Assembly (NCBI GenBank): GCA_036785375.1
Contig: JAWMAR010000028.1
Location: 1-64,000 of the forward strand
From: Leucoraja ocellata
Taxonomy: Eukaryota
DNA: 64,000 nucleotides
Direction of reading: 5' to 3'
Position numbers and translations under genes: made by a program. Below, in pieces: positions 1-54,344 of this stretch. Under the pieces are notes generated by a model, which made no database searches, had not been told where the DNA came from, and worked only from the letters and a program-made list of their open reading frames with translations. Numbering within the stretch: the first letter of the stretch is position 1; every line of letters begins with the position of its first letter.

Positions 1-2600
1 TGGTTTGTTTCAGAAGTTCTCAATGAGCCCATTTAAGAAACAAGTCCGTGCCAATAAATGAAGTGAATATTTGATCTGACACAGAGTAAAATTAGTGATT
101 AATCTTTAAAAATAAGTGGCGTTTCTGTTCCAAATAATAATCATTTGCATTTGAGAGATGATTGATTCCATTAGGGTTTATGTGCTTCTTAAGGTTGATT
201 GTATTGGGTAAATATCGCATACAATTTAAAAATAATTTTCCCTCTCGGTTTACATTGAGAACACATTTTCAAACGTTGCCGGCGCTACAACTGCACCTTG
301 ACCTTGATGTTTTGACCTTTAACTGTTCATATATACTTGTGTAATTTGAAAAGAAAAACAGCAATGGAACTGACATAATGTGCAGTTTTGTTCCCAAATG
401 ATATTTGAAATGGTCTCTTTAAATCAAGGAATGGGCAAAATTTAAAAGACCGTTGTTTTACGGGACCTCTCCAATTAACAATGTGGGTCAATTAAAGAGA
501 TGGTTTGGATGAGGACTTCCAGAGCGAAACTGAAACAAATGTTCTAACTGTGATAATGTAAATAAAACCAAGTTACGTTTTAATGCCACTCTTCTTATTA
601 GATAAATACGAATTTTGGACAAATGGTCAGTCCTGTTTTTGTTGTCCTTTCTCTGAGGATTAACAGCAGCAGTTCATGGAATCACAGATAAACTTCACGG
701 AAACAACCAGAATCTCCAAGGCAGGATTGCTGGGTAACTCATATTCGCTTTGGCGTGATATCTGTAACGTTGAACAAAATGTTACCGCGTAGTAGTGTGC
801 AAAGATCCTATAGCAGAGCTTTGGTAGTGTGGAATTAAATGTTAAAGTATTGAAATATAATTAAACAGGTATATTTCCGGAAGTGTATGTTAGAATACAT
901 TTATTTAAGAAATGCGCATGAATTTGCATTTATTAAAACGCACTTGGCTCGTCCCAAATGATCATAGTACAATTGCTTTGCTTTAGTAAAGATAATACGA
1001 ATTTGAGGAGAGTGCTAATGTGAAGATTTGGTATCTGTGATACCCAGAGCACCAAACACCTGTATACTATAAATGTGAACCGGCCGTATGCTGGTACATG
1101 ATCCGAGTGCTTCAATTGTCGCCATCCAATTCATTGGTATTAAAGCCAAGCTAGATCCATAATTAAACCAGGAATACATATTAACTCTCCAAACCCCGAA
1201 CACATGTGTGCGTGGGTTGAGTGGAGGAGGAAGTTGCATTGTGTAGGAAGGAACTGCAGAATGAAATATATATTTTTTAAAGAAATGACGATAAAGGAAA
1301 CAGGCCATTGTTAGCTGTTTTCTAGGTGAATTGCTCTTGGTTTATGTCAATGCCCGCGGATACGTTATCAATGGCAGATCCTCAGCGAGGCTGCTTAGAC
1401 TCAGCTATTAAATCGAAATCTAGACCAGTTGATGACAAGCACCGGGGAAGATATGCGGATAAAATAGGATGTCAACTATCCTCAATGAATCCTATTCAAA
1501 GTTTACTTTTTTAAAGAAAACATGAATGTGCATGTTTCTGGGACAATCCAGTCCGCACTGCAGAAATACACCCCATCATTGAAAACAGCTCTCCTTTTCA
1601 CTATCGTTAACATTTTATGTCCTTGCTGAAGAATACAAAGGAGAATAGATGATCTATATTCTCAAGCATTTTTTTTTTCAAACACCGTCCTTGCGACTCA
1701 TTACCTGAACTCGTCCAACGATCATTGTTGCTGCCGCGTTCGCAGGTCTCATTATCGACACGGCCATAACAGTGAACGATGGAGGCTAAATACAATTAGA
1801 TGTCATCTTTTCATCTTCATTTATGGTCGTTCATTTAATTGTAATTTATTAATTGAATGATTTTTGTAAAATTGGTGGTATTGTGTTATATTAAAAAGCG
1901 GTGTACATCAGATATCAGGTAGATGAATGGATGTGGACATCCTGCTACAGTTGTCCAAACCGAGTGTGTGTGTGTAATTGCAAAGCCCATAGATAACGCG
2001 CACATGTATTAGTTATCACTGCACAGCACATGTTCTGTTAAACTTCTCCACACATATACGTAAATACCCACACAGTAATCAGCTAACAGTAAACAGCCCT
2101 TTCAGTGGCAGTACATTAGAAAGCAATTTGAGATATAAATTTGAATAAATTATGACTACTGCACAAAAGTTAATTTCCTACCTGAAACGTCGTACAAGTG
2201 TTACGAGTGCGATGATCAGCCCAACCATCTGATCAACACCTGCGCGGTGCTTAGCGAATATAATGTAAAAATTAGCTGATCAGTTGTCCACGCTGTGATT
2301 TATTTGTCTATTTCTACTTGCGGTGGCAAAGTTTCAAACGACCTGGTAGAATATATCAACAGTGTGTGTATGCATGCTGGGATAATGATGCAGTAATTGT
2401 AATTAGTCACTTGCAAAAAGCAAAAGAATTCACCTACACATATGATACGGGTATAAAACAAATTGATAGTAGTTACTTTCAAATTACCTATCTATTTGAT
2501 ATGGCGGTGAGGTCTAGTTTAAAATCTATTTTATGCTGCTGGCATATAATTAACCAATATGATTTTACTCAATGCCGTGCATGTTAGGTTTTTTCTAGAA

Positions 2601-2696
2601 GGTAGACACAAATGTTGGAGTAACTCAGCGGGACAGGCAGCATCTCTGGAGAGAATGGATGGGTGACGTTTCGGGTCGAGACCTTTCTTCAGACCG
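2601..2696 (-). mobile_element. Penelope-derived short unit with minimal hammerhead core, TSD-flanked
   Basis: Minus strand reads GGT CTGAAGA AAGGTCTCGACCC GAAAC GTC ACC; 10-bp direct repeat TTTTCTAGAA at 2591-2600 and 2697-2706. Confidence 0.8.
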
Positions 2697-4782
2697 TTTT
2701 CTAGAATCCCAGAACCATCTGAACTAGTTAATATAACCTTCTTTATATACCCGAAACTATTGTTTTGGCGTTCGGAACAGAGGCAAATGCCCTATGATTT
2801 TTTAAAATTACGTCGGATTAGTAGCGATGTCGGTTGGTGAATAGCATCGTGATATCAATCAAAGTTTGTTAATAATTAAGTAATTAACCAAGCCTCTACT
2901 TACAGATGTCACGGGGCAGATAGTATCTAATTTGACCTGAAAGATGACAATCGGGCATCGTCATTCGGACGATAGTGCACAATTTCCATTATAGATTTTA
3001 AAAGTTTTAATAACAAATCAGGAAAACAAATGTATACATAAACCCAGTTTTTGAATATATATTTACATTGATTTAAAAAAAATTCTCAGGTTATCAAAAC
3101 ATTTAAAAAAACGAACAAGATCTGCAATTGTTTCCAATTATTAGTTTTTTTTGTGTCACAATATTTGCACAGTTTCTTTGCTCGATTGTTATTCTAGATA
3201 GCAACACGTTTCACATATTGAAGATTACTCTGACTCCACCACTGACAGTCAATGTTGTCATTCTTTAGGTCCGTTAATTATGAGACATATGCGTCATCCA
3301 TGCTAACCAATTTATGCTGGAACGATAAAAGCATTTTTTTGTAAACCGCCAAACATTAAGACACAGACTTGGGAACAAAATGTTTCCAATCACATACCGT
3401 AATTTTCTTTTGGCAAAACGCTAGCTATAATTTCTTTGACATTTATCTGACTGAATATTGATAAGAACCATGAATTTTGAGAATCCAGTTACGGAAGGGC
3501 GATTTATGGTCGTCCCTGCTCCGCCCTGAAGAAACAGAGATTAAAATTCATTTCTATCTTCACAAAAAATTAAAAGGTAATTTTGTAATTTACTACCGAC
3601 GGAGTAAGGGAAATGTTAAAGATAATGAATGCCAAATGTATGGAATTAATAGTTTATGAATTTAGTACAACGCACCACTCTTTCTAAAAATAGCTGCGGG
3701 ATTTAATGCTATTTAATATTAGGTTCATGTACACAATTGTTAAAAGCAAAATGCGATTGCACTGCCGGAGGCAACGTTTACAGAAGAAAGGTTGAATTCA
3801 CTGTCCAGCCACTTCTCAGATTACATAATCCGTTCCAACATGTCTGGAAAGACTGGCTCCACAAAAATCAGAAAGACTTTTAACGGGAGATCGTCTAAAG
3901 TAGCAACAAGATTTTTTATTTGTCGGGAGAAATGAAACAACCTAACTAATATACTCTCGCTGTATTGTGCATCGCATCACCGAATGTTGTTCATTACGGG
4001 GGGAAGATTTGCGGGTTTATCGTCTGTGGATAGAAATTTAAGACCCGCAATGTCTCTCCCACGTGTTTTGAAGCAACCAGTTTAGATTAAATCTGATTGT
4101 TTGACCCTTTCAGAGATCTTTACTTGAAGAGCGCATGCATTTGATTTATTTAACCATGGTAACCCAATGGCATTGCGTAGACTGTTACAATGGGGCCCCT
4201 TGAGAACAGTGAATTGGGAGATTATTCAGTTAAATACATCTTTCTAGACTCGAGAGATTAATCGTCTCCCTGTCTTCGTCTTGGTTATGCTTATACTGCG
4301 CCTAATAATATGCGATCCAAGCTGATCCAGAATCAATTTTGACTTGGGAGAACCGGATTGTGTTGTACTGCTGTCACCGCAGTCAGGATACTGGACTGAG
4401 TTCTGGGACATACACTCCCTGAGCGTAGATCTCCCCTCAGTGCATTACATTGTGTTGAGGGCGCCAGACTGGGCGTTTGAAACATTTAAAGTACAGTAAC
4501 TCTGTCTAAATTCCTGAAGAGTACAGCAGACCCGAGACACACTGAGAAAGTCACCAAAGCCAGTTCGACATCGACAATCTGCACGACAAACCTACTCACT
4601 TTCCACAGTCCATTCGGCCCGAAGTCTGCTCATCAGTGGAGCAGCGAACTTGGTGGTATAATTCGATATTCTGCTCAAAGCTTTGAGATACAATTTAACA
4701 CCTGCAACGGAATATTTGGAAGGCCATTGATCCTTACTTTGATCTGAGTAATTTGGTCGATCTGCCACTGCATAACTATAAT

Positions 4783-5019
4783 AAAAGACACAAGGTGCTG
4801 GAGTAACAGCGGGTCAGGCAGCATCTCAGGAGAACATGGACAGGTGACGTTTTGGGTCGGGACTCTTCTTCAGACTGATGACCGAATTATTCTGAACACG
4901 GGTCCCGACCCGAAACGTCACCGATCTATGTTCTCCAGAGATGCTGCCCGATTCGTTGAGTTACTCCGACACTTTGTGTCTTTTGTTTAACCAGCATCTG
5001 CAGTTCCTTGTTTCTACAC
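4783..5019. mobile_element. Inverted (foldback) pair of Penelope-derived hammerhead units
   Basis: Arms at about 4783-4875 and 4891-4984 are reverse complements, followed by the CCAGCATCTGCAGTTCCT tail. Confidence 0.8.
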
Positions 5020-12930: not shown

Positions 12931-13384
12931 TCAAGCTATCGCAATAAGTGTCTCAATCTTCTCTGGAATTCTGCAATTCAAATTCAGTTCCTTTAATTTG
13001 TCCTTTGAATTTTCTCTATCCGTTTCACAAGTAACAGCACTCTCTGTTTCCGTTTCAATTTGTTCCAGTAATTGATTCTTGCTGTCACCCTGTTGAATAC
13101 TCTGCTGTGATGATTTGTCAGTTCCTGCATTTGTCTGATCAGTTGCCTTGGCTGGTTCTTGACGCTGTAACATACTTTCCACTTCAATCTCTAGTTCTAG
13201 CTGCTCATCATCTGTCTCCATTTCCAATTGCTGCATCAGTTCCTCCAACTTCTTAGATTTGCGTAGTTCATTCTGCTGGATTATGGCACACAGATGCTCA
13301 GTCAGTTGCTCCTTCTGGTCAATCTTCTTGTGAAGATCCATCTTAGCTGCAACATATTCCACTTCTGCTTTATCATACCTCTTC
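12931..13384 (-). CDS. GORAB: GORAB coding exon 5 (terminal coiled coil, stop TGA)
   Basis: [42 protein letters not shown]; acceptor CCCTCAG|G; stop at 12933-12931. Confidence 0.95.
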
Positions 13385-16300
13385 CTGAGGGCCAGGAAAG
13401 GACAAACAATGAGGCAATATTGTGGAAATACCATCTGAAGGCAATAAAACAGTTGCATTGAAATACAATGGGGCTGTGAATATTTATTTTGCAATGAGCC
13501 CTTACCAATCTTCCTCTTTGGGTTATAGGAAAATCATCTTAATTGATGGGGAATCACTTTTTAGCTCTGCTGTGGGACACTGAGCCTCTAGTAACTTAAC
13601 ACAACTTTGTTCCATTAGCTGGTGTACAAATGACTGCCCATCACTGTGCAGAATATCGAGGGATAATAATGCCCATCTTGCAAATAAATTATGTTGCGTT
13701 CTCCAGTGATACAGAAGGATCTGAAACTCAGCCTTATATTAGAATCACTTGTGACAATATATAATACATCGGTATTTGTGTTTTTGAAAATCTTTCCAAA
13801 TAAACAAAATCTCTCATTATTAAATAAGGAGCCATACAGTCCTTAATGTCATTAGAAAGACATTACAAACACAGACTGTAACTTGTTAAACAAATGGAAG
13901 TCCTCAAATCTTTCTTCTAATCCCAAGATTATTGACTTTATAAATGCAATGTTCTTGTAACAGTATAATCTGAAATAATTTAAAAGGATACTGGTTAGAC
14001 CGAGTTTCAAGACTTACGGTAAAGGGTCTTTCAGTACATAAGTTCTTTGCTGCCATTTATCTCTCATCCTCTCATATCCTGCTGTTCCTTTCCCTCTCAC
14101 GTGCTAATCACAGTTTTTCTCACTACTTATGCTACCTATTTTGGAAATACACTACATATGCTTAATATAAAGTTTCAGTGGATGTTTCTCAAAATCTAGT
14201 AAAAGCCAATGACTGTTGTTTCTTGAAATCTGAAATAAAACAAAACTTTTAAAAACTCAGGTCAGGCAACATCTATTCAGACCAAGTTTTCGCTTCATTC
14301 ACATTTATGGCCCTTCTGGCTTTAACAGTTTCTATTTTCCTGACTCACTACCTAATATTCTTCATGTCCATGTCACACCCCCATCCTCCACCAGGATAGA
14401 CAGAGCCTATCATTTCCTCCTTGAGCAGAGACCCAACTTGTATCCCTCACCCACCACCTTCCTTTAATTATCTGAACATGCTGTGATTCCAAACACTACT
14501 TACTTTCTCTGTTGGGCCATTCTTTGGAAAGTGAACCAAAATGTCACACACGTTACCAAATGGCATCACATAAATTAATCCATTAAAAAATTATTGTAAC
14601 AGATTAATCCTATTCATTGCTATTTTCCTACCTACAGAACATAATGCATGTCTGCTAAAGATATGAACAAGTTAGCTTTTTAAAATTCACAAGAGTTTGT
14701 AAGATAAATCTGAGTTATGAAAAAAAAAAGTTCCGTGTGAGGTCACCAGTCATATTTGACCTCTGACCCTAAACAAACATTGTCAGCATAACATAAATAT
14801 TTCACTTGATAAACTGAAAAAAATATGAATCGTATATACTACACAGTATAAAACAATATACCTGTAATGCTTTTAGAATTCGAAGATATGTATTGCACAA
14901 TTTTTCATATTTTTGGTCACACGTGACTAAGAATGGATCTGATGCTGTGGAAGCCCTTTTAGAATCAAGTTATGCTGATTTTCTGTATCAGTTTCATAAA
15001 AGGCTCCCTCTCTCACTTATCTTCCGGTGGTTATTTTTAACAGGAAGGCAGATTACTATCTAAATGGCATCAAGTTGGAAAAGGGGAAGTACAACAGGAT
15101 CTGGGGGTCCTTGTTCATCTGTTCATGGCCTTTATAACAAGAGTCGAGTAAAGGAGCAAAGAGGTCCTTCTGCAATTGTACAGGGCCCTAGTGAGACCAC
15201 ACCTGGAGTATTGTGTGCAGTTTTGGTCCCCTAATTTGAGGAAGGACATTCTTGCTATTGAGGGAGTGCAGCGCAGGTTTACAAGGTTAATTCCCGGGAT
15301 GGCGGGACTGTCATATGCTGAGTGAATGGAGCGGTTGGGCTTGTACACTCTGGAGTTTAGAAGGATGAGAGGGTATCTTATTGAAACATATAAGATTGTT
15401 AAGGATTTGGACACGCTAGAGGCAGGAAACATGTTCCTGATGTTGGGGGAGTCCAGAACCAGGGGCCACAGTTTAAGAATAAGGGGTAAGCCATTTAGAA
15501 CGGAGACGAGGAAACACTTTTTCTCACAGAGAGTTGTGAGTCTGTGGAATACTCTGCCTCAGAGGGCGGTGGAGGCCGGTTCTCTGGATACTTTCAAGAT
15601 AGAGATAGATAGGGCTCTTAAAGATAGCGGAGTCAGGGGGATATGGGAAGAAGGCAGGAGCAGGATACTGATTGGGGATGATCAGCCATGATCATATTGA
15701 ATGGCAGTGCTGGCTCGAAGGGCCAAATGGCCTACTCCTGCATCTATTGTCTATTGTCATTGTATTGATGCTGCTTCCCACTCACCCCAAACTAGAACAA
15801 TTCTCACATTTGGTTCTAATTTCAACACTGCTTTTGTTGTCACATGGTCTATCTGAGTATTCTCTTCCTGGACTTCTCTACCTCAATTTCAGGGGAAAGG
15901 CTGCACCCAGAATCCACTACAAGCCCAATTAATTTCCTCAGTTACATACCAGATAATGTCTACAAATTTGAGTGTACTTGCAATTTAGTATAGAGATACA
16001 GCATGGTAACAGGCCATTCAGCCCACCAAGTTCGCCCTGACAAGCAATTGCCATCACACGAGTTTTATCCAATACACCAGGGACAATTTACAAAATGCAA
16101 TTAATTTAAAACCTGCAAGTGTTTGGAATGTAGGAGGGAACCAGAGCACCCGGCAAAAACCCATGCGTTCACAGGAAGAATGTACAAATTCCGTACAGAC
16201 AGCACGCAGAGTCAGGATCGAGCCTGGTTCTCTGGCGCTGTAAGGCAGCAACTCTACCACAGTGACATGGCTTTTTAAAAAAAAATTCAGCATGCAACTC

Positions 16301-19300: not shown

Positions 19301-22300
19301 TCAGTTGTTGGACCAATTATGTGTTTGGAGGCAAATCCCAAACTCATGATGAACAGCAGATTAATATCTTGTCTTGTTAAAAGTACGTCGGTTCCACCTT
19401 TAATTCACTCTACGTTGATACATTGCTCAGACTGTCCTCAGGAATGAAAGTAGTAAAAAAAAAACTCAGCACCAAAAGGAGTTATTGTGTGCTACTCAAC
19501 GCTGCTGCACTGCGAATCTGACTAAATATCCTGCCTTCCATTGGCACGGTTAAACAAGGATTTGCTCCATAGCTATGTGGAGAGGTTTGGGTGGTTATTT
19601 TTCCAGTGGAGCCAGTGATCATAAAACTTGTTAACAAAGGCTGGGGTGAGCAATGTAGCCAAGTTGAGAGATGAGCTAACGTCCCATCCAGCAGGAGGTG
19701 TGAGACAGACGAGGATCTGAGCACTCTGTGATCAAAGAGTATGTGCTGCCAGTCCCTATCAACAACCTGCAACCCGGTGGGAGAAGGGGAGGTGGGGGAA
19801 AGAACAAAGGAGGAGCTGGCTGGGGCTACTTTGTAACTTTGTCAGTGACGTTTATGTGGCGGCTATTTGTATACCTTGGGTATGCAAGCAAAGAATTTCA
19901 CTGTGCCTTGTCACATGTGACAATAAAGTATTCCATTCTATTCCACTCACTCTGGCCACAATTCTCAGAACTGCCTGCCCAGGCCAGTTCAATACCAGCC
20001 AAGTCTCTGTTATTGTCAAAACACCATAAACCACATGGTTAATTGTGCCTGCAGCTCACCGACCTCGTTTAAAATGTTTATACTTATAAACATGTACATA
20101 CACAATCTTAGATTAAAAAAACTGAACATTTTGTTAGCAGGTCAAATTATTTTTTCAAGCTGAAACTGTGCAAGTGAGAAAACAAGTTAGTTTTATATTA
20201 CGGAAAGATTGAAAATGAGAATATATCTCTAATATGGTGAAGACAGAGTTGCCTACATGATTCCAATGTTGGTAGAGTTGCTTGGTTAGTTGAGTAGTAA
20301 GGGCATCAAGAGATAATAAAAATGGACAGGCTAAAGTTGTGAAATGCAGGATAGAGCTGATACCGAAACAAAAAGAATGCTGGAAATGCCCAGATTAAAC
20401 AGTGGCTGTTGAACGATAAAGTTAATATATTACAAATGGATACATTTATTGCATAATTACCAAGTCTGTTTACAGTTTTTGGAAATTATTGAACTTGATA
20501 GAATCTTGAAAGCTGTAGTGTGCTTAGATGGAAGAGATGCTATTCCTCAAGCTTACATTGGGCTTTGTTGGAACACTGAGGGAGTGAAACCTTGTTGATT
20601 TTGATTCAAATTGCAAAAGATGATCATTAAATATGCAAACTATTTGATGCATGGTGAGCACTATCCTTGTTCTCGGTAAAATGGATAGAGGGAAGACTGA
20701 AGATTTGGGAAATAGATAAGCAATGGCTTTGGGAACTATTTTAAAGGCAACAAACAGAGGTACCTGTATGGGAAGTTTAATCACAAGGGCAGATACAACG
20801 GAAATTGAAAAATTGGGAGAATGCAATGGAATCCTTACAGGAAACAGGATGGGAGGAAGTATAATCAAAATCACTCTGGGGTTTGTAATAGATATGGCAA
20901 CCTATTCCCCACTGAGATGGAGAGAGAAATTCGTGAAGGGAAGAATCATATCAGGAACATGTGAAAGTGAGAGCAGGGTGGAAATTGGCAGCAACACAAT
21001 TTAAGTTTTTTTCTGGAAAAATAGTTGAGAGAGAGAGATATAACTCCTGGTTGAGTGGTGCCACAACAACAACCTCTCACTCAATGTCACAAAACCAAGG
21101 AAGTAACCATTCACTTCAGAAAGGGGAAGTCTGGAGACCACGTGCCAGTTTTCATTGGTTGTTCGGCAGTGGGGAGTTGGCAGGTTCAAAATCTGGGGTG
21201 CTAATATCTTGGAAAACATGTGCTGGGCCCAGCATATAGTTGTAATCATGAAGAAGGTGATTAAAGAGATTTGGCATGTCTACAGATGTACTATAGAAAG
21301 TATCTTGACTGGTTGCATCATGCCCTGGCATGACACACAACCTAAGATGCTGAAGAGAGTGGTACTCAGCCCAGTTCATCACAGCAACAGCCATCAAAAG
21401 CATCTGTGGATTCCCACCATCTTGGCCATGCCGTTCACGCAGTTACCATTTGGCGGGTGGTCACACATAACCAGGTTCAGAAATAGTGACTTTCCTTCAA
21501 CTATAATGCTCTTGAATTGAAACTCAAAGTGCTGGAGCAACCCAGCAAGTCAGGCTGCACCTGTGGAGAAAATGCACAAGTGACGGTTTGGGTCAGGACC
21601 CCTTTTTCCTCCAGTCTGAACCATGTAGTACAATCCTATTTTCACCTCAACAACATATTACTGAGCAGCTCTTGCACTACCATGGGTTTGTTTAAGTGTT
21701 TTCCACTAATATATTGTTTTTGCTGTCTTTTTTCTTACATAATGTATGTACAATTTATGGTTTTGCACATTGTCTATCTGCTGGAGATGCTGCTTCAAGC
21801 AAAATTGTCATTGTACTTGTCCATCACCATACTTGTGCGTATGACGTTAAACTCAACGCAACTTGAAATTGGTTCTTGTATCCCAGAAAGAGGTAGGGAT
21901 AGACTGAACCATGCTGTGTAAATACCAGTTTACACAACCGTACTAATAATCTGGAGAAAGTGAGTGGAGCTGAAGGAAATTTTGTTTGGTGCTAGTATAC
22001 GTTCAGGTGGTAAATGAGAGTGTTGGAGGTGGGGTACTGGAGGAGCTGGATGTCCACAGTGAAGTTGATTCAGACCAGACTGTCAAAATGGTCGGTGGCA
22101 TCAGAGGTGTCATGGATACATGGATAAGGGACTGAACCAGGTAAGAAAGGAGGGAGTCAAGTTAGTAACAAGTTAGTAACAAGTTTGGTGTGGCAAGAGT
22201 AAGGTGATTGAGGTGGTCATGCCTGCAGATTTTGGGGACGAAGCAGAAGCAGACTGTAGAACATTGGCTCGAGGCACTGTTGAGAAGATTTCCTGAGGAA

Positions 22301-25300: not shown

Positions 25301-28300
25301 AGCACATGTAGCTTACAGAACTACCCCAACTAAAAGGTAGGAAAGTGCAACATCACTCATTGAAGTAGATTGGACATTTGATGTCCCAATTATATTTAAA
25401 GTGATCATTGTAACTATCTGGGACATATGACAATAACACACTCGATTCTTGAATATTAATTGAATTACTTAAACTGTATTTGGACACCACAATTCAACAT
25501 GAACCAATTGAGGCTCAAGGTTATACCTTAAGAGTCAAGAGTGTTTTATTGTCATATGTTCCAGATAGAATCGTTAAATTCTTACTTGCGCAACACAACA
25601 GAATATGTAAACATAGTACACTGTAAACAATATGATAAACGGGAGAAAAAGTCCAGTGTGTATACATACACACCAACAAGTACACACACACACATGGACC
25701 CAGTTTCATGTCTCCCTTATCTTGATATTAGGTTCTTAGTTCTAATTACTTATTAAATAAAAAAATCTGCCTTGCTTAGAAGCAACTTAACACAACCGTA
25801 CAATTAAACAAGTTTGGTCTCCTGAAAGCCTTCTTGAGAGAGGAATTAAACTGCTAATTCAAGCACTTGCATACATATGATCTGTTCAGATGTGAACCTA
25901 ATTGGCACCCAAACATTTAACATTTTTATGTAACATTTTCGCTTTGGTTATCAGCTGAGGTGCCTTCTTTCTGAGCATGTTCTTTACAAATCAACAAGTT
26001 TGACCTGAGGTCCTCAATAATTATGAGCGACATCATGATTACGGATACCATTGTCGTAAATTATAATTTCCACAAAGAAATTGCAAACAAGATTAATAAA
26101 ATTTGACGTTGATTATTAATCCATTCTTTTATTGCGAGGTGAGCAAAGACAAAAAAAAAGGGCGCACGATGAATGATGTTAAAGTTTGAAAGCCAGTTCA
26201 ACACATCAGGGCCAGATCAACTGAAATTTTTCAGTCCTTCCATGAAGCAGAAATTCAGGGAAGGTTTGCAAAGCACCGGCGACACATTTTGCCTGTGCCT
26301 TATTTGATCAAAAAACAACATAGCTTCTGTTCCCCAATGCATAAAGCACAATGAATGTCATCATTGCACTTGATATTTTGACTTAATTTTCCTTTTTGAA
26401 CTCAGCCACAAAGGAAAATGCAATTATTGTCATGGCACAGGGAAAACATAAGAAAGTGCAGTCCTCACTTTCAGATTAGAGAGTATATTAAAATATTTTT
26501 TGCACCCCCTTGTCTAAAGTCTTGCAGTTCTTCCTTATTTGGTAAACGTATTTCACAGTTAGGGCACTTTGGGAAGAAGGGAAGTAAAGTTTACTGAAAT
26601 AACATTTGGTCTGGAGATAGGCACAAAAAGCTGGAGTAACAGCGGGACAGACAGCATCTCTGGAGAGAAGGAATGGGTGAAGTTTCGGGTCGAGACTGTC
26701 TGAAGAAGGGTCTCGACCTGAAACGTCATCCATTCCTACTCTCTAGAGATGCTGCCTGTCCCGCTGAGTTATTCCAGCTTTTTGTGATCTTCGGGTTAAA
26801 CCAGCATCTGCAGTTCCTTCTTACACACTTGGTATAGAGAGCTGAGATGTACAACATTCTGCTAAAGCATCACCATTGGCAATGGATGCAATTGGTGATT
26901 TTTTTTTACAAGAATCTGTTGTAGAAACTTCACATTTACAAAAATAAAAGTGACAAAACAGCAGCAATATTTTGTTAATAAGTGGGAAGTTTGTTAACAA
27001 ATGTACTCTTTGGTAAAGTATGTGAGAAAAAGGGGATAACTGCTCCACGATCCCAGAAACAATTTAGCACCATTCTTCAAGTCATGTATTTAGACCATGT
27101 ATTAATAATAATTGTATATTTCTATATCTGCATGTGTAACTATCTTACTTCTCTCATCATTGGAGTAGATCCACAGGAAGTGTACTTAGACAGACCTTTC
27201 AAAACATCAGTTCACCTCTCAAGCTGTCGGACAAGATGGATTTATTCATCTTTCTTTGCCTACATACTCAAAATATGTCAAATACTGTTGGTTTGAACCC
27301 CCCCCCCCCCCCATTGAAATGATTGTACATGGGTGTGTGGGTGGAAGAAATATGCACAACCCTACCAAGAATGACAAACAAAAGATGACCAGATGCTTAA
27401 ACAATGCATAACCATCAGATGGGTTGAATTGTCTGTATTGTAAATATGCACAACCTTAAACTCATCTCCACCCTGCTACTCCTGTCAGAAACTATTTACC
27501 AAACACTTGCGTATTCCCATTTTATTGTCATTCACATCCTCAACTAGATCTCTCTAGCCACCTTATAATTTCCTGCCTTCTTGCTTCCATTCTCTTTTGA
27601 CAGGTAGTCTTTGTCCATTTCTCAATGTTTCACAGATGGAAGAGATTATGATTTCTGCTTCTGATAAGCAATTAGAACTTACATTTCTTGTCGGTACATT
27701 ATCAAAATTGAACCACTGAACCATGTAAAAATATTCTTAAAATGTTAAACTTCCAGATTGGCCAAAATCCAAATGCTTACTTTATATTTGCAATAATTGG
27801 CATGTGGAATTGCCTTGGGTGTCAAGATTTGGAATCTATAGTACCAAAGACAAAAAGTGCAGCATGATGTAAGATGGATTTGCAGCACTACTATATTATG
27901 GAAGCTCCAAATTTGTGGAAGAAAAGTAAGACAGAAGAAAGGAATTTGAAGCAATTAGGATGAGTTAGTTAGGATAAGGATTAGGAGTCTGAAGAAGGGC
28001 CTCGACCCGGAACGTCACCCATTTCTTCTCTCCAAGAGATGCTGCCATCCAGCCTGTTGTGTCTAGTTTGGATAAGAGTTGAAGTGAATCTTTATGTCAT
28101 ATGAACAGATGCCAAGAAAAAAAAGTTTAAGGAGCAATGGCTGGAACAGAATTTAACCAAGGTAAATATTGCCTCATTAAAGGTAACATTTAGCATTTCA
28201 CAATTTTCAATTCTGTGCGCCTCTTGGAAAGCAGTGATCAGTTTCAAAATGCAACTAGATTAAATCAAGAATGTATAATTGACAAATAAATGTAACCCAA

Positions 28301-31300
28301 AAATGTTGCATTACCTCATATAAACTGAAGTAAAAGAGGCATATCTGTTTTAAAATAATAATATAAATTTAAGTTACATTTGGAAGAATATTGAGTATGT
28401 TACAACCTTTTTGGGGTTTAGATCTCCAAATTGAGGAAACTAGCCCTAACCCCGTGATTTTAGATCAATGTTTTTTTCTCCATTGGAATAGCGTGACCTG
28501 CTATCAGCTTCACAATCAGGCAAGGTGGCATAATCGGCCTCTAACGGCTGAAGAAGGGTCTCGACCCGAAACGTCACCTATTTCCTTCGCTCCATAGATG
28601 CTGCCTCACCCGCTGAGTTTCTCCAGCATTTTTGTGTACCTTCTAACTGCTGTACTCATTTGACCTGTCCTCATCTTATCAGATATTCTATTTGTTTTGA
28701 ACATTCCTCCCACCTCCTCTGCAACTTACAAGTTACTTATTTTAAAAACTCTTTCCAGTTCTGACAAAGATTCTTGGAATTGAAATGGTAACTGTTTATT
28801 TTTCCAAAGATGCCACCTCTTTTGAAGTACCCAGCATTTTCTGCTTACATTCAAGATTCTTTTGTTAAAAATAACCAAAACAATATTATTGATCTCAACA
28901 CTAGAAAATATCCATTATATTTTAACCACTGTTTGAAATGATTTGTCGCACACTTTCAGAATTTGTTTGCTTTATTCAATCCAGTGATTCTATAAAGACT
29001 GAATTCCCTCAACCCAGTTTTAACAGTTTTAAACATTTTAATGACTTTTCAGGAAAGAGCTCAGCAGCAACCTTATGTTTTCCCATCTTAATGCTAAATT
29101 AAGTGAATGCACTACACATTATCAACAAAAATGCAGTTGTTTTATTTCTGATTTATAATTCAGGCAGTTTTGGAGTATGTGCCAGCCTGGTGACTCCTTT
29201 GAAAATACACTTGTCTAAATGAATAATGCTTATGTTCAAACTATGAGCATTTAACAAAACCTGCTTGCATCAAGATAAACAGTGGCTGGCTTACGTTTCT
29301 TGATTTTGCTACACTACCTTTCTATTATTTATTATACCGCAGAGCCATGATGTCGCTAAGACCTTAAGAAATACTTAAATTGGAACTCAGGTAGCAAGAT
29401 GGGAGACAGACAGACTGGCACCCAATCTCCCCACCCATGATTTGATGCCAGACTTTCAACACGCAGAAACACATGAACAGGAAGTCTATAGGTATCATGA
29501 ACTATTAATCCTTACTAATGTGGACATGGTTTGCACAAGTCAACTCTTTTAGAAACAAATGTATTTCTCCCACAAAAGCATAAACCTATTCCATAGTGTT
29601 CAAAAGATTGGATTTGCACAGACTCTTCTTCAGTCGAATGAAGCTTTTTTTTCTGGTTGACTTCATCTGAATGCTGCCTTAGTAATCTATGTCAATTATA
29701 ATACATATAATTAAGAGTTTTGAACTATTTTATTTTGTAATTCCAAATCATGTTGACTCCTTAAAACACTGCATTGTCCAGGAAAGATGCAGTTTAAATA
29801 AACAGCTTTAAACCCCGCCCCCCACATTTTTTTGCTTCAAAAATATCCATGCACTTCTCTACACAGCCAAACGAGACCAGTTATATCTTGCAACATTGTT
29901 AATTATATTGAAAACCTGTAATTCAATTTGAACAGTGATTTCTCCCTTTAGGATTAAAACGTTATGGATTAATCAAAAGGTCATGGCAATATATTTAATG
30001 CAGGACAATTTCATTGTCCTATCTGGGACACATGGCAATAAACTCTTGACACTTTCGTACAGTACAGCTTAATACTGTTGCAATGCGATTCAATGAAATG
30101 TTAGCTGCCTGGTCAAGTAAAAAATATCTAATATAGGCTATTGTTTTCACTCATATTTCTTCTGCAACTGACATCACCAGAAACTTTTAAAAAATTACTT
30201 AATGGTGTCTTTTGGCCTTAGAAAATAAAATGGGACTGGGTACGCTTCTACTATCGCTGCCACATCCACAACTACAGAACTGTGGCATTCATTTCCGTTC
30301 TGATGAATTGTTTAAAACATGTTCAGATCCTTGTTCTCCTCTCTCTGAGCACCGATGAAGCTGATGGGAATCACCATAAAGCTCTTCAAGACACCAGCGC
30401 CCCTTGAAATTCGGGATCCCATTGTAACGACGGGCAGGGCAAGTGGAAAAGTGTTTTTTTTTTAACGTGTTTGTTGTAAAGTTTAAAATGTTAATAACTT
30501 GTAAAATATACCATCAATCTGAACAAAACTTGTTTCATTTGCATCACGGGACAATGGTGAGTAAGGTGGGTCCAAAATTGTATGTCCAATTAATTGTCCA
30601 AGATGAGTTTTAGTAATATACTAGACCAAGTGCAGACCCGTTGGGACTGCTCCCCCAACGCAGCTGTTCTCTACCCGTAGCCCCCACGGGAGACGTGGTA
30701 TTCCAACTCAAGCGGCTCAGGAATCAGCAGAGCGTCTGTTTTTAAATGGCGTCTTTGAGGCGAGATGCGGGCACCAGCAGCCGTTATGGTCGCTGGCAAG
30801 CAGGAGGCGACAAAATGAGTGAGTGGGGGGGGGGGGGAAAGAAGGATTTTATTCAAAATGTGTACATAAACACGACAAAATTTAATGAGTGGATACTTGG
30901 AATGAAAACTGAAATCTCTACCGAAATGGAAAAATCAGGGCGTTTGTGGGTCGGGTGTTGGCGTAGCAACGAATCAAAGGCTGGCAGCCACAAGTCAGAA
31001 ACACACACAGCCAGACACACAGAGTTTTAAATGTAGATAGATAGACAAGAGAGAGATATCAAATGCGTTGGGATTCTCCTTAACCCAATTTACCAAGGAC
31101 ATTTCATGGCCTATTTTAGCTCTCCTAATTCCCTACTTTTATTATACTCCTCAAAGGTCCTGTTAGGTTTTATCTCCCTAGACTTTGCGCATACTGCCTT
31201 TTCTTTTTCAACCAAATTTACCTCTCTAATCGTTACTTCACAAGGTTAGACTCAGGAATCTGTGTTGGTCTCCATAAAACAATGAAAATTGTGTGGAAAT

Positions 31301-34277: not shown

Positions 34278-34279
34278 AC

Positions 34280-34580: not shown

Positions 34581-34753
34581 CTAATTATACGTGTCGGAAG
34601 GTCAGTTGACTGCAAAGGTGTTTTTTATTTTTATTTTAAATGCTGAGAACATTTAATTAAAAAGCTTAAGAGTGTAGGAGTGACCCAACCAACGTCCATC
34701 TCCCTCCACGGATACTGCCCGACCCGCTGAGTTTAGTTTTAGTTCAGAGATAC

Positions 34754-35912: not shown

Positions 35913-36094
35913 CCAATACTTTATATTTAGGACATGTTAGGACTTTAGAGACACATACAGGCTGATTTTTGTGTGTGATATATTTCGCTGCTCAAAAGCA
36001 ACTGAATAATTGCATGAAATGTAGTGGCAGATTAGAACTAAGAACCTGGCCCATCACATTGGCCCTTCGGTTACACGTGAATGAAGATGATGGA

Positions 36095-37075
36095 AGCTCA
36101 AGCAAAACACAAAATGTTGGAGGACTTCAGCGAGACTGGCAGCATCTCTGGAGGAAATAGAAAGACGATGCCTCGGATTGGACATTTCACCCTCCTTTAC
36201 GTCGTGTAAACCAAGCGTAGACTCAGCGACTGTTTCGCTGAACAATTATGCTTGGTTCGTCATGGCCTGGATCTCCCAGTGGCTAACCATTTTAAATCCC
36301 TTTCCCATGACCATACTAAACTTTCTGTTCTGGACCCCTTTTATCCTCCATGGTCAGAGTAAAGGGCCTGTCCCACTGTATGAGCTAATTCAAGAGTTCT
36401 CCCGTGTTTCCCCTGATTCGAACTCAGAGAATTACGGTAATAGCTGCTCGTGGGTACTCGGGTCTCTCGTGGACATTTTTCAACGTTGAAAAATCTTCAC
36501 GAGTCTTCAGGAGCTTACTGCGTTTCCCGAGTACCTGCCGTTAGCGTTACGAGCTGCTAAGAGACGTCCCGAGCTCCGACGTACCCACTACGTACATTCT
36601 ACGTGCTTACCACGAGTTTGGGTTTTTTTAGAACTCGGGAGAGCTCTTGAATTACCTCGTACAGTGGGACAGGCCCTTAAGGCCACATGCAAATTGGAGG
36701 AACAGTACCTCGTATTTCATTTGGGCAGTTTACAACCCAGCCGTGTGAATGTAATATTTTTCATTTTCAGGTTCCCACTAGCTTCCCACTCTCCCTCCAC
36801 TAAAGGTCAGTTAACAAGTTCCCCAGTTTGCAACAATGTATCCCTCATGGAATCACACTGTCCCTTGCCAATAATTTGCTTATCAGGGAACCACCCTGCC
36901 TGAGGTAATCTGTTGCTGGCCCTGATTTATTCTGTTTTTTTCTTGCTTCCAGTCCCACCTCCCTATCCCCACATTCAGTCTGAAGAGGGTCCCTGCCTGA
37001 AACGTCACCGATCCTTTTTCTCCAGAGATGTTGCCTGACCTGCTGAACTAATCCAGCACTTTGTGTCTTTCTTTC
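36095..37075 (+). mobile_element. Degenerate Penelope-like 3' fragment with pLTR pieces
   Basis: LHGQS/ATCKLEEQYLVFHLGSLQPS homologous to the 52.6-kb endonuclease tail. It ends in a CTGAAGA..GAAACGTC unit at 36980-37007 and has an inverted piece at about 36105-36160. Confidence 0.7.
36363..36677. mobile_element. PIF/Harbinger-type MITE
   Basis: Long TIRs AGGGCCTGTCCCACTGTA..GAG.TAATTCAAGAG; TAA TSD at 36360-36362 and 36678-36680; interrupts a Penelope endonuclease remnant. Confidence 0.85.
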
Positions 37076-43245: not shown

Positions 43246-43479
43246 TTTTGATCAGGAAAGCATAATAGCATTTTATTTTCTTAGGCATCTGAGAAGGTTC
43301 AACATGTTCATGAGAATTCTCTCGAACTTCAACAGATACACTACAGAAAGTATTCTGACGAGGTGCACCTTGGCCTGGCATGGCTTCTGCTCTGCTTATG
43401 ACCATCTGAACCCTCAGAGTGTGGTAAATACAGCACAGTTCATCACATGTTTGTCACTTCCTTCTATATCCACCAGGGG

Positions 43480-47557: not shown

Positions 47558-47860
47558 CGGCAAGGTGGCGCAGCAGTAGAGTTGCTGCCATACAGCGCTT
47601 ACAGCGCCAGAGACCCGGGTTCGAATCCAACTGCAGGTGCTGTCTGTATGGAGTTTGTACCTTCTCCCTGTGACCACATGGGTTTTCTCCGAGATCGGCT
47701 TCCTCCCACACCAAAGGAGTACAGGTTTATAGGTTAATTGGCTTGGTATAAAATGTAAATTGTCCCTAGTGTTAGTGTGCGGGGATCGCTGGTCAGTGAG
47801 GACTCGATGGGCCAAAGGGCCTGTCTCCGCGCTGTATCTCTAAACTAAACTAAACTAAAC
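47558..47860 (+). mobile_element. HE1-type SINE
   Basis: TGGCGCAGCAGTAG A box, GGGTTCGAATCC B box, (TAAAC)n tail. Confidence 0.87.
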
Positions 47861-48050
47861 TGCAGATGCTTGTGTAAAGCAAAGATAGACACAAAATGCT
47901 GGACTAACTCAGCAGGTCAGGCAGCATCCCTGGAACACATGGATCAGTGACATTTCGGGTCAGAATCCTTTTTCAGCCGGACCTGAAAAGTCACCTATCC
48001 ATGTTTCTAAGCAGCCTGACCTGCTGAGTTACTCCAACACTTTGTGTTTA
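47860..48050. mobile_element. Degenerate inverted pair of Penelope-derived units
   Basis: ACACAAAATGCTGGACTAACTCAGCAGGTCAGGC and its reverse complement GCCTGACCTGCTGAGTTACTCCAACACTTTGTGT. Confidence 0.72.
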
Positions 48051-50110
48051 TCAATCAACTAACATGGGTTCGGGTAGTGAGATATGGTCAACAATTTAGT
48101 GGTATAGGATCGAGGAACACAGAGGTAGGTCTCATGAAGCCGGGTTCCTGGAGTGCATAGGGAGACATGCCACAGAAGAGGTGAGTTCACAGCTAGGCAT
48201 AGTTACTTAGAAGAGACAAACCTTTTTTTCCCCATTATGCAGTGACAGATATTTAGGTATAAACTGTTTCCGTTTCTGGAATCTACAATTACTATTGCCT
48301 TCACTAATCCTTCTCTGCTCCTTCAAAAGCAGAAGCCTAGAAAATCCTTTGCATCTTTTGGGCTTTATTAACCCCTGTGTGAAATTGAAATGTTATTTAA
48401 GTCTTGATAGTTTTCTTATCAGTCCAATCAAGATTACAAATATAAAAACTGCGTTTATTCATTTTGCTACATGAGAGTACATGTTTTATTTACAACTGGC
48501 ACAGTATGGTAGTTATTAAAAGGATGGGTACTCCTAGGCAATGCTACTGTTGGTGTTTATTTTTTTGTGTGAGATGATGTTGTGAGATGCAGTTAGCCCC
48601 CATGACAGAAAAGTTGCATCGAGGACTGATGGACTGATTTGTGCTTGTAATCATCTAATGAAGCTCCTGTTATCATTCTACACATTCCTGAGTTGATGAA
48701 AGGAATGGAAACTGCAGAATTATCTGTTCATCCACACCATGCCCTTGCTTTATTTTAATGAAGAAAAGAATGACCTTTCCATTGTCAACAGCTAATCTGT
48801 TAGTCTTTTGAAATGCTTAACTACCATAGGTTAATTTGAGAAGAAGATAGTTTGCAAAGGGATCCGAGCTGTATTTTGCACTGAAGCAAAACATAAATTG
48901 TGCTTATGGTGCAGAAGCAATTTCATAACTTTGCTTCATGGACTATTCCTTTTTGAGGAATTTATTGGTTCTATAGTTTTTGTGAGATGTACCAGAGTGG
49001 TGCCACATTTTGATTATGTATATATTGGTTTCATACTGGAGTTTATGTTTGTGTATCTGGGTAGTGTTCCTTTTTATTGGGCTTTCTTTCTGACAAAACT
49101 GGGGGAGGTGGACAGACTTGAAAGAGGAGAAAAGAACCAGACTCATCCAGCATCAGACATTATCAGTTGCCTCTGTTGCATTTTTAATGAATTCTGAGCC
49201 ACATTGCCAGGTCAGTAGAATTTAAGTCGATGGAAAGGCTGAAATTGTATATTCTTCCAGGCTGAACATTGTGTTTGTACTGAGTCCAGTTCTCATTACA
49301 AAGGTGGAGAACAAAAGTTCAAAACCTTGGAATTGTGGAGAGAAATATCATAAGGATGATGCTGTGGCGGCTCCCAAGGGTCGTGCCATCATACTGTCGA
49401 ACTCCTCGGCATGGGAGTGGTTCAGTCCGGAGGCGACCCTTAGCCAGAGGGTTTAAAGGCAGGGGTTTGGGTGCCATCTTTCTCTTGTTTGGTCTTCCCT
49501 ACAACCGGGAGGAACATAATTAAAGGTGCCTCTCAAAACACTGGACTTTGTGCTTCCTTTTGAGACCCACGCACCACAATGCTAACATTAGAATTCACTT
49601 GAATCTTAAAGCAAAATGAGGGCGATATCACACAGAAAAAGCACCCAAGGGTTACCTCTGAAATATTATGAATATACAGAATAAACAAACCAGTCGCTCT
49701 CTCAGCTAAAGCAAGATATTATCCAGGCGTTACTTCGTAATGAGACTAAATGTGAAGCTTGTTCACCCATTGGATAACTATTTGAACTTCCAAGAATGGA
49801 ATATGATTTGAAAGAAATCCCATTGGGCAAGGTCAAATATTGTGGCTTCTCTGCAGGCTGGGTTTCTGTAAATACTATACTCTCTGATATTGTTATCTTA
49901 GTGACCTTGGGTCCAGATCACTCCCTATCCTAAGTGTGTGGGTGACACAAAATGAAGGCACGGAAAGCACGGACAGAAGAAGTTGCAAATATCTCCATTA
50001 GAGATACTTAAAATCATTAAGGGTATAGACAGATGGACACAAAATCTCATTAATAGAATAATCAAACACTACAGGACAGAATGAAGGTGATAGAAAGGTT
50101 TCATGTTTCA

Positions 50111-51139: not shown

Positions 51140-51203
51140 TAGATGAATAGATAGGTAGGTAGATAGATGGATAGGTAGGTAGGTAGGTAGGTAGGTAGGT
51201 AGA
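51140..51203. repeat. (TAGA)n/(TAGG)n microsatellite
   Basis: Directly visible. Confidence 0.9.
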
Positions 51204-52544
51204 TTTTTGTGTTTTTTTATGAATGTTGGCAAATTAATTTTGCTCCTGTGATAAATAAAGTTCTATCGTATAAATAACCAAAAGAGGCATGGGAAAACTT
51301 TTTGGTGAGTGAATGATTGGGAACTGGAATGCATTGGCAGAGGAGGTAGTGGAGACAAATTCAATTGTTGCACTCAAAAGTGTGGTTAAGGATCTAAAAG
51401 CAAAAACATTGGTAGAACGCTAGGGAGATGGAATGTGTTTGTTTGTTGTTACTTTGAGCTAGTGTTCACTTTCTAGCCCAAATTGTTCTTCCATGTTATG
51501 ATCATCCTATAATTCTGATTTGCTTTGCTATTCCCATTCATGTGAAAGAGGAATATTCTATCATAGTTCCAATCCGCATTGAATATAGGGGGGACACTTT
51601 GAGGAGTCAGGAGATGTTTCACACTTGGAAGAACCTGTATTCTGAAAATCTGTTATTGTGGCCAAAGTTTCAATGGACCTATTAAGGTTCACATCTGTTA
51701 ACTCCCAAGCTGTTAATAGTCAATTTATCTGCCCTTATTTAAAAATAGAATAAGCCATTTGGAAAAGGTAGGCCTGAGGGTTTTGCCATGAGGAATTTCC
51801 ACACTGATGTTCTTTGGATGTAAAGTATAGTTTCAAACAATCATTCCATTTTTTTGTTATGACTGATCTTTCTGAGGTTTATCTTTTCATCTGATTTTTG
51901 TAAGGGCTTCGTAACAGTCAGTCAAATGCTATGTCTTCTCTTGTCATTCAATTCTGGTAGGTTTCTGGCAAAAATGGGCAAATTATTTGTCTAGATGACA
52001 TTTGATGACATTGTTGATAATCCCTCTCATTCCTCACTACTTTGATGATTGGTAATAAACTGTGAGGGAAATAGGCCAAGGATGAGCCTAAATTAGTTTT
52101 ATTTGAGTCTTACAATATGGCCAACTCGTGTAGATTTTACCTTTACTTTCTTAAGCACACAGCAACCTTCAACAGCATTGGTCAATCAGCAATAGAATAT
52201 TACAGTAAACAGCGACAAGAACCAATGTAAGAATACAATGCCTCACTTTGAGGTTCCAATCCTCATGGGTCATGCACATTCAATGTTTGAGTGCCATTTT
52301 TCATTGATGAGTTTCAACAAATAGTTAGGCAATTGCCATTGCTGTACTTGATTGAATTGCCTTGAATATGCACTGTTTATTGAATTGAATTGAATTGAAT
52401 TGAATACATTTTATTAGCCAAGTATGTATACATACAAGGAATTTGCCTGTTGGTTAGTGAATGTGAAGACTGGCATGTCTTCCTGCCTACAATTCATGGC
52501 ACGAGATCAATTGTGCCATGGCATTGGCTAATATTGACTAATGG

Positions 52545-53455
52545 GAGAGCTGGGAGGGCAAGGGAAGGAGGGAGAAAGCAAGGACTACCTGGAATTGGAG
52601 AAGTCAATGTTCATACCGCTGGGGTGTAAATTACCCAAGCAAAATATGAGGTGCTGATCCTCTAATTTGCGGTGGGACTCACTCTGGCCATGGAGGAGGC
52701 CCAGGACAGAAAGGTCGGATTCGGAATGGCAGGGAGAGTTGAAGTGCTGAGCCACTGGGAGATCAGGTTGGTTAATGCGAACTGAGCGGAGGTGTTGGGC
52801 GAAGCGATCAGCAAGCCTGTGCTTGGTCTCACCGATGTAGAGCAGCTGACACCTAGAACAGCGGATGCAATAAATGAGGTTGGAGGAGGTGCAGGTGAAC
52901 CTCGGCCTCACCTGGAAAGACTGCTTGGGTCCTTGGATGGAGTCAAGGGGGGAGGTAAAGTGATAAGTGTAGCATTTCCTGCGGCTGCAAGGGAAAGTAC
53001 CAGGGGACGGGGTGGTTTGGGTGGGAAGGGACAAATTGACCAACGAGTTACGGAGGGAGCGGTCTCTGCGGAAAGCTGAAAGGGGAAGAGATGGGAAGAT
53101 CTGGCCAGTGGTGAGATCCCGTTGGAGGTGGCGAAAATGTCGGAGGATTATCTGTTGTATGTGACGGCTGGTAGGGTGGAAAGTGAGGACAAGGGGGACT
53201 CTGTCCTTGTTACGAGTGGGGGGATGGGGAATGAGAGCGGAGTTACGGGATCTAGAGAAGACCCTGGTGAGAGCCTCATCTATAGTCGAAGAGGGGAACC
53301 CCCGATCCCTAAAGAATGAGGACATCTCCGATGCCGTTGTTTGGAACACCTCATCCTGGGTGCAGATGCGGCGTAGACGGAGGTCTCACCTGCTGCGTTT
53401 CTCCAGCATTTTTGTCTACCTTCAATTTTTCCAGCATCTGCAGTTCTTTCTTAAA
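52545..53455 (-). mobile_element. Penelope-like element fragment: RT C-terminus plus GIY-YIG endonuclease, with an inverted terminal-repeat piece
   Basis: ORF 52585-53349 contains NLIYCIRCSRCQLLYIGETKHRLADRFAQH...PVAQHFN...LEDQHLIFCLGNLHPSGMN. An inverted pLTR piece lies at 53385-53455. Confidence 0.9.
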
Positions 53456-54266
53456 CATTTTACAATTTAAAATAAGTCTGTGCATCTTATCATTGGCCAC
53501 TACGTGCAATTTTTTCCTATTACTAATGTTTGTCATTAAAACTCACAGAAATATAAGAGCTTAATCAGTCTCAGTGCACTTTAGACTGGAATGCCAAATA
53601 TTTACTAAATTGAAATTACTACAAAATGAAATACTTTCATGAACAGCTGATCTACATTAATTCATATTCATAATTATCTATGTATCATGCTATATATGTC
53701 AACACAGAACTATTGAATAAATATAATAACACAGCAATCATAAGCCAATTGATGTGTAACCTTGAGCTGTTGTTCTCTACTAATTATAACATGATCAGTC
53801 TTGACAGGCTGACATAAGGGTGTTTATGTTTCAACCAAACTACTGGTCTAAGATCCAATGAAATGAGGTCATCTTTTAAAAAATTAACTATTGTTTAAAA
53901 GAGCAGTATGCCTGAGGCTGAACTTGTTAGGACTGAGCAACTAATGTTGTGATTTGACCACTAGCAATCTGTTAGGTGACCTTTATTCATTCAGTTTGGT
54001 TTTATTTAAAAAAAATGAAGCATTAACAGTCTGCCTGATTTTAGGTTAATGGAGATTTAGAGTCAATTTCAAAAAATAAATTTGTTTGCTCCTGGAAAGT
54101 GGTTTCATGTGCTAGTTTTCTTCTTTATAATATATGTCCATGACGGGTGAGGCTCTTGAGGCTCTGGTATATAATACAGAAAATTGACAGTTAAAGGTGC
54201 AACAAATATAATTGTTCACTTTAATTTGTCATAACAGCAAATATAAACCAACATCAAAATCATAAA

Positions 54267-54340
54267 GTCTGAAGAAGGGTTTCGACCCGAAACATCACCC
54301 TTTCATTCTATCTAGAGAGCCCCGCCGAGTTACTCCAGCT
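54267..54340 (+). mobile_element. Penelope-derived unit with hammerhead-like core
   Basis: GTCTGAAGAAGGGTTTCGACCCGAAACATCACCC. Confidence 0.72.
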
Positions 54341-54344
54341 TATT

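Follow-up and report, generated by a model that had tools for sequence, protein, structure and literature searches.

Hammerhead-bearing units in the window

The stretch analysed here, 64,000 nucleotides (nt) of Leucoraja ocellata (assembly GCA_036785375.1, contig JAWMAR010000028.1, positions 1-64,000 of the forward strand; hereafter the window), carries dispersed copies of a short unit that contains a minimal hammerhead ribozyme motif and belongs to a Penelope-like element (PLE). Positions in the unit are numbered from +1, the A of AGTCTGAAG, three bases 5' of the CUGA box, and the predicted hammerhead cut falls between +31 and +32. The original prediction had named at least eight loci with this unit and described a family of mini-elements of about 95 nt, some inserted as monomers. 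A search with a 136-column profile recovered all eight, and found 15 unit arms at 11 loci across the window. There are no head-to-tail units among the 15 arms, and an Rfam scan of the window returned no hammerhead family at E-values up to 5.

Some of the copies are indeed solo units flanked by target-site duplications (TSDs). The minus-strand solo at 2591..2706 (unit 2600-2694) starts at +2, ends at about +96, and has the perfect 10-bp TSD claimed for it, at 2591-2600 and 2697-2706; its first helix II pair is broken (A.C). The plus-strand solo at 28540..28652 (unit 28548-28641) is likewise flanked as described, by an 11-bp, one-mismatch TSD, TCTAAC(G/T)GCTG, at 28540 and 28642 that overlaps the first bases of the unit. 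The core sequence quoted for the best-preserved copies matches exactly in this solo and in no other window copy. A third solo, at 27966..28076 on the plus strand (unit 27986-28064), has an internal deletion, a GAAA box changed to GGAA, and a previously unreported 13-bp, one-mismatch flanking repeat at 27966 and 28064. The plus-strand solo at 54266..54344 starts at +1, has a decayed helix III palindrome, and was negative in a TSD search. Two further copies are absent from the earlier list: an old minus-strand solo at 21514..21606 (E 3e-14) with a decayed core, and a heavily decayed plus-strand fragment at 34676..34734 (E 5e-4).

The monomer description does not hold for the copies placed at 4783, 26615 and 47860, which are head-to-head pairs with a tail of about 37 nt on one arm. 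At 4784..5012, the minus arm (4876-4784) has a decayed GAAA box, the tail-bearing plus arm (4891-5012) has a decayed CUGA box, and no clear TSD is found. At 26611..26827, the minus arm (26696-26611) starts at +14 and the plus arm (26698-26827) starts at +2, with a full tail, intact core boxes, and a G.U at the first helix II pair. At 47858..48052, the tail-bearing minus arm (47977-47858) starts at +3 and the plus arm (47979-48052) at +18.

Two loci join the unit to Penelope coding sequence. The 5'-truncated insertion at 36082..37074 has GIY-YIG remnants on the plus strand at 36195-36332 and 36691-36768 (tblastn E 6e-8 and 5e-4), with other sequence between them, followed by a pyrimidine-rich 3' untranslated region (UTR) and a plus-strand unit at 36977-37074; a unit ending a GIY-YIG remnant had been predicted at this place. 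Its inverted, tail-bearing minus-strand arm (36197-36082) was not part of that description. Also new to the list is 52585..53457, in which a minus-strand Penelope fragment (52585-53385) keeps 266 open codons ending in GIY-YIG, matching the intact open reading frame (ORF) described below at 77%; an inverted tail-bearing arm (53383-53457, plus strand) adjoins it, and the 3' unit is missing. A decayed remnant of a Penelope reverse transcriptase (RT) thumb lies on the minus strand at 20756-20986 (tblastn E 5e-12).

The remainder of the annotated window is a host gene and other repeats. The gene occupies 12931-19075 on the minus strand; one RNA contig joins 13035-13383 to 16717-16843, and another covers 18876-19013. 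A Pfam search of the gene gave no match above cut-off, and its C-terminal frame may be GORAB-like. None of the eight named units lies in the sole intron shown by an RNA contig (13384-16716), so the proposed seeding of introns is not borne out in this window. A plus-strand frame at 24364-25095 has two CCCH-like motifs (weak Pfam zf_CCCH_4 match, E 0.019); we take it to be ZFP36-like, and it is possibly a decayed copy. Two broken remnants resembling long terminal repeat (LTR) retrotransposons, with gag-, RT- and integrase-like frames and 72-75% alike, lie on the minus strand at about 38.4-42.7 kb and 59.1-62.9 kb. Pieces of the 3' end of an abundant long interspersed element, which we assume to be CR1-like, lie at 15.1-15.8, 32.7-33.0, 44.2-44.9 and 57.8-58.3 kb.

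The parent element and its hammerhead

We sampled 88 ten-kb stretches at fixed coordinates on the 28 largest contigs, which together with the window make 944 kb. The sample holds 452 arms, and the reversed sample holds none. These comprise 160 arms in tight head-to-head pairs, 145 solos starting by +12, 72 arms starting further in, 57 with a Penelope UTR, and 18 at stretch edges. Scaling from the large contigs only, the extrapolated genome total is about 1.6 million arms. Exact matches in the 3.44-Gb assembly number 15,546 for a 31-base core and 78,410 for a 34-base word from a young subfamily, with no occurrence of either in reversed controls. Many of the loci fetched from contig G000:C1 at about 0.3-3.1 Mb are present twice in opposite orientation, which suggests a large inverted segmental duplication or an assembly duplication there.

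The origin claimed for the unit, in a Penelope element, is supported both by copies attached to GIY-YIG and UTR sequence and by an intact element that carries the unit at both ends. In many copies, the end of a GIY-YIG frame and a pyrimidine-rich UTR, 85-380 nt long, come before the unit. The intact young element reads, in order, unit plus tail, 37 nt, ATG, a 1221-aa ORF, a 116-nt 3' UTR, and a unit ending at +96. Because the unit stands both before the ORF and after the 3' UTR, it is at once the 3' pseudo-LTR (pLTR) and the 5' leader of the element. The ORF contains RT, a CX4CxxC linker and, at its C-terminus, a GIY-YIG domain; its Pfam matches, RVT_1 at E 2e-6 and GIY-YIG at E 0.013, are both under the curated cut-offs. 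A linker of the form CX2-5CxxC between RT and endonuclease (EN) defines the Neptune/Nematis type (PMC8557442), and the CX4CxxC linker points to that clade for the present element. At locus L180, 3674-7715 (G000:C8, about 5.607-5.617 Mb), the element forms a 100%-identical tandem with a period of 3946 bp and an intact 1221-aa ORF. Several further intact copies occur in the genome, and recent activity of the young element is likely. In all five full-length copies examined, a truncated 3' piece lies upstream, giving a partial tandem.

That the unit carries a minimal type I hammerhead motif, as predicted, is supported by the column consensus over 224 aligned arms, in which CUGANGA, GAAA, the UH site, the extra base after A9, and the palindromic helix III are all present. 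All of these features are kept together in 45 of the 224. Helix II had been read as 5 bp closed by 2 nt, a parse ruled out on steric grounds; it is 4 bp with a tetraloop (GGGU-CUCG-ACCC). Helix I has two pairs (U-A or U.G, then G-C) followed by A.C in 89 of 100 arms, which is below the type I standard of 4-5 bp, and a helix I of the same length, 2 bp, has been reported in D. virilis (PMC4209133). Folding of monomers gave no significant structure (z +2.6 to -0.5; isolated core, z +0.9). In the predicted fold, AGAUGCUG at +51 to +58 pairs with the tail, and a CCAGCAT word lies 20-25 nt ahead of each of the two 3' ends of the unit; this makes a candidate RT recognition signal.

The proposal that these insertions seed self-cleavage sites through the genome, and with it the expected excess conservation of the CUGA and GAAA boxes, finds no support here. 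Box conservation in solos is 93.9% against 93.3% at downstream conserved positions, every core feature is retained in 21 of 104 solos, and across subfamilies helices I and II vary by one-sided wobbles, in helix II from U-A to U.G with almost no two-sided changes. The lack of extra box conservation, together with these one-sided changes, fits a hammerhead that is maintained in master elements and decays neutrally once inserted.

Insertion ends and re-copied first bases

Whether the solos are genuine insertions can be judged from their flanks. Of 127 solos whose 3' end is complete, 24 are abutted by a TSD of at least 10 bp; the share is 0.9% for shuffled flanks, and none of 51 UTR-attached arms has one. 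Among head-to-head pairs, 23 of 67 have a TSD (1.8% when shuffled), 55 of 67 have the tail on exactly one arm, and 59 of 83 have at least one arm that starts by +6. The pyrimidine fraction upstream is 0.51 for solos, 0.49 for background, and 0.78 for the UTR class; since solos are at background level, an undetected UTR does not account for them. The 3' ends in the sample fall at 92-103 or 127-136, that is, at about +95 or +133, and those of arms of the young subfamily cluster at 93-104 and 127-139. These two positions match the two internal RT start sites and the tail of an anole element discussed below (PMC11167929). Clustered 5' and 3' ends and TSDs thus give the copies shared boundaries, and the random truncations that the original prediction had set as its own refutation are not what is found. 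Several young insertions, judged by eye, seem to lie inside other common repeats (loci L231, L245, L256, L305, L339 and L341), as if there were some target preference.

The original prediction held that the ribozyme-bearing end is mobilised alone, which in its stronger form would make the solos a mini-element like a retrozyme or a short interspersed element (SINE), transcribed and re-mobilised in trans. Shared ends, TSDs and the huge copy number agree with such an element, as would the putative cis signals that each solo keeps, and retrozymes derived from PLEs, monomers included, have been described (bioRxiv 10.64898/2026.07.22.740005). The solos, however, have no lineage of their own. In the alignment of 224 arms, an arm and its nearest neighbour belong to one class in 34.4% of cases, against 35.9% when permuted (p 0.69). 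Solos, pairs and UTR-attached arms all include both of the main haplotypes, and solos derive from every major subfamily, where they are interleaved with ORF-attached copies. In 184 arms with a tail, a novel downstream flank is not shared by any family, save duplicated loci and a few pairs; the hammerhead boxes show no excess conservation; and junctions that run from the ORF leader back to +1, given below, call for templates that extend past the length of a solo. Because the solos form no separate lineage and their boxes show no added conservation, the data do not support a ribozyme element that propagates by itself, and we regard it as improbable. What survives of the claim is the individual, TSD-flanked insertion of the terminal module.

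The 5' ends were located in a young-subfamily set of 70 arms, the first matches on one contig, chosen by their 3' half only. Automatic removal of duplicate loci left 61, with a few duplicates remaining. Of these, 29 start between -8 and +15, 17 between -9 and -880, and 8 are longer, while 7 start beyond +15; the density of starts between -8 and +15 is about 65-fold. Three of these last start at +32, immediately past the predicted cut. The pile-up of 5' ends is at the front edge of the hammerhead and not at the cut site. Exact counts of the young core across the genome give 12,079 occurrences with the UTR bases ATCA in front, 2,468 with a non-C and then A, 1,411 with G at +1, and 972 with T at +1. 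We considered a cap-derived origin for this enrichment of G at +1 and rejected it, as junctions trace this G largely to re-copied element bases, TSD overlap, and inverted arms. Antisense A- and B-box-like motifs do not match the insertion ends.

Two processing routes to a fixed 5' end find little room in these data. Hammerhead cleavage, with or without ligation into circles, could account for the three arms that start at +32, one of which is joined to +204, and the perfect short arrays described below do resemble rolling-circle products. The main 5' end, however, precedes the cut by about 30 nt; of the three +32 arms, two make up one inverted pair at a palindrome; and one array is entirely without a CUGA box. 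Raw reads (three runs from a related organism, swamped by passenger copies) show no pile-up at the predicted cut, and the anole element could insert in vitro without any need for cleavage (PMC11167929). A circular-RNA origin of the solos is set aside as well, as solo ends ignore the cut site. We consider cleavage as the source of the ends very improbable. Splicing is less credible still. In UTR-attached copies, a pyrimidine tract followed by CAG (C 0.85, A 0.89, G 0.89) precedes the hammerhead in the manner of a splice acceptor, from which spliced RNAs would take a sharp 5' end, and an intron is reported to end at helix I in D. virilis Penelope (PMC4209133). Solos, however, mostly keep the G (0.67) and the A (0.59) that splicing would remove and share no upstream exon, and none of the joints listed connects GT..AG to this site.

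A second feature accompanies the 5' boundary. In 50 junctions inspected, the bases between the TSD and +2 often repeat the element's own +4 to +13, and one re-copied form has 72 exact occurrences in the genome against about 0.2 expected. In all 30 cases examined for this point, the re-copied piece stops at +1 to +6 and never reaches the UTR; nine of the 30 were flagged as adjoining an inverted arm, and two resemble one duplicated locus. A head 5-mer occurs just upstream in 16 of 33 young, non-inverted arms that start at +1 or +2, against a background of 7%. Longer returns also occur. Junctions lead from the ORF leader to the head of the unit: +205 is joined to +1 and, within a perfect array of 202 nt, to +4, and +204 is joined to +32. 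The junctions from +205 show that templates extend into the ORF. Perfect short arrays of 202, 204, 299 and about 265-320 nt, built from the unit and ORF leader (L204-L210, L215-L219 and L221), begin in the middle of the unit and finish at the RT start sites; the one that lacks the CUGA box is the 204-nt array. We infer that the cDNA end meets a template end, or some hard boundary, near +1, re-anneals downstream, and copies again. This re-copying of first bases by young solos is new here. A literature search, with subscription papers and Repbase/Dfam outside it, found no description of a fixed hammerhead 5' start or of re-copied first bases in PLE insertions.

A proposed run-off model and its relation to other systems

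The explanation we favour, and hold to be moderately probable, is that the units are separate, TSD-flanked insertions of a Penelope-like terminal module, produced as a by-product when the element's RT runs off the 5' end of its RNA at the hammerhead front. RNA of the element would start at about the A of TCAGTCT, an initiator-like sequence. A nick by the GIY-YIG endonuclease would prime cDNA at two internal start sites in the 5' leader, at about +95 and +133, by analogy with the anole element (PMC11167929), and RT would run off the RNA 5' end at the front edge of the hammerhead. A cDNA end at +1 or +2 could then re-anneal to a look-alike sequence downstream on the template and be extended again, leaving stutters, or short arrays when the return is from +205. 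A head-to-head pair would form when two such cDNAs, one primed on each strand, join, and the hammerhead would be carried uncleaved as a passenger and then decay. The TCAGTCT that straddles +1 matches both initiator consensuses given in Table 1 of PMC4581360, YYANWYY and TCAKTY; as a sign of an RNA start it is a weak argument, because the motif is degenerate.

Several observations weigh against this account. The 5' ends form a cluster over about 20 nt and do not fall on a single base; positions of the downstream promoter element and motif ten element (DPE/MTE) match only partly; and there is no cap-like excess of G at -1 (by eye, about 26 among the 100 listed). No TSD is detectable for 103 of 127 solos. 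In the 944-kb sample, whose copies are mostly older, the stutter is not in excess (4 of 63 solos, against 5.6%), and two arrays jump back to -29 and -46, so that some templates reach upstream of +1. Each of the five full-length copies follows its truncated 3' piece, and none starts at +1. In the same three runs of raw reads, neither starts nor ends pile up on the unit, a weak test because passenger copies dominate the reads; 96% of reads in one run continue into unlike sequence. Unlike the start proposed here, that of D. virilis Penelope is not at the hammerhead, being placed 46 bp ahead of the intron that ends there (PMC4209133, PMC2377424).

Some of these points would be met by an internal stop, in which RT, with the 3' pLTR or a tandem read-through RNA as its template, halts at the hammerhead front because of a fold, a bound protein, or the C-rich tract immediately upstream. 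The source would again be the autonomous element. The 20-nt spread of 5' ends, the lack of an RNA start in the reads, the partial tandems, and the array junctions within the UTR all suit such a stop, and the anole hammerhead is described as folding only with the element protein (PMC11167929). Against it, folding of the core on its own is weak (z +0.9), and a polymerase would be expected to stall on reaching the 3' side of a stem rather than once past it. Moreover, 25 of the 61 young arms pass the site freely, yet none of the 30 re-copied pieces does. We judge an internal stop rather unlikely.

Returning to run-off at an RNA 5' end, a broader proposal is possible, although we advance it only tentatively. 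The Penelope hammerhead may serve as a core promoter and template boundary, with the RNA beginning at its first base. On arriving there, the telomerase-related RT would realign its product on that template and extend it anew, as telomerase does in repeat addition, yielding more than a million stubs, the 5' stutters, and the retrozyme-like arrays of 200-300 nt without ribozyme cleavage.

The element has parallels in known systems. It shares with endonuclease-bearing (EN+) PLEs of the Neptune/Nematis type a single ORF with RT and C-terminal GIY-YIG, the CX4CxxC linker, partial tandems, an optional tail of 30-40 bp, a head-to-head inverted copy, TSDs of 9-18 bp, and solo pLTRs (PMC8557442, PMC3846280). 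It differs in that stubs consisting of nothing but the terminal module are commoner than copies with an ORF and have a sharp 5' end in common. In the available text of PMC3846280, TSD-less solos are put down to recombination or deletion, and neither a fixed start nor a stutter is mentioned. The motif agrees with the minimal type I hammerheads found in metazoan PLEs (Cervera and de la Pena 2014, PMC4209133) in its CUGANGA and GAAA boxes, the extra base after A9, G10.1-C11.1, the palindromic 15.2-16.2 without loop 3, and its occurrence mostly as single motifs or opposite-strand pairs, whereas here helix II has 4 bp and helix I only 2. That source takes single hammerheads as probably truncated PLEs and, as far as its available text goes, leaves their ends unmapped. 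Cleavage of minimal hammerheads as dimers is covered in a review (PMC6765202).

A mechanistic parallel is PAc, an anole Poseidon element (Frangieh et al. 2024, PMC11167929), which likewise has two 3' ends, separated by about one tail length and lying downstream of a hammerhead that stays uncleaved where pLTR and ORF meet, and whose cDNA runs to the template 5' end in vitro. In the text available, the 5' end of natural PAc RNA is not mapped. By its linker motif the present element is of a different clade, and here both start sites precede the ATG. Animal non-LTR retrozymes (PMC7229834; bioRxiv 10.64898/2026.07.22.740005) are likewise hammerhead-bearing pLTR derivatives with dispersed monomers, and, like them, this genome has a few perfect arrays of 200-300 nt. 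Retrozymes are, however, defined in those accounts by tandem units with at least two hammerheads, whereas the window copies are solos or inverted pairs without a lineage of their own; in this genome only a few arrays outside the window fit that definition. The 5' junctions of R2 (PMC2718515) show the same extra bases and microhomology at RT run-off, with template jumping; as far as that paper's available text describes, they contain target duplications and non-templated bases rather than the element's own re-copied first bases.

As objects, the stubs are an ordinary decaying repeat and not evidence for ribozymes active across the genome. Copying of Penelope-like elements, the start of their RNA and the role of the hammerhead are presented as open questions in PMC11167929 and PMC8557442, and to these the present genome offers a precise prediction (an RNA 5' end at about +1 and RT starts at about +95 and +133), a large record of products, and a young intact element. 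The stutter and the arrays suggest a cleavage-independent route from pLTRs to retrozyme-like arrays. The interest of these units lies in their 5' boundary and stutter, as clues to the replication of PLEs.

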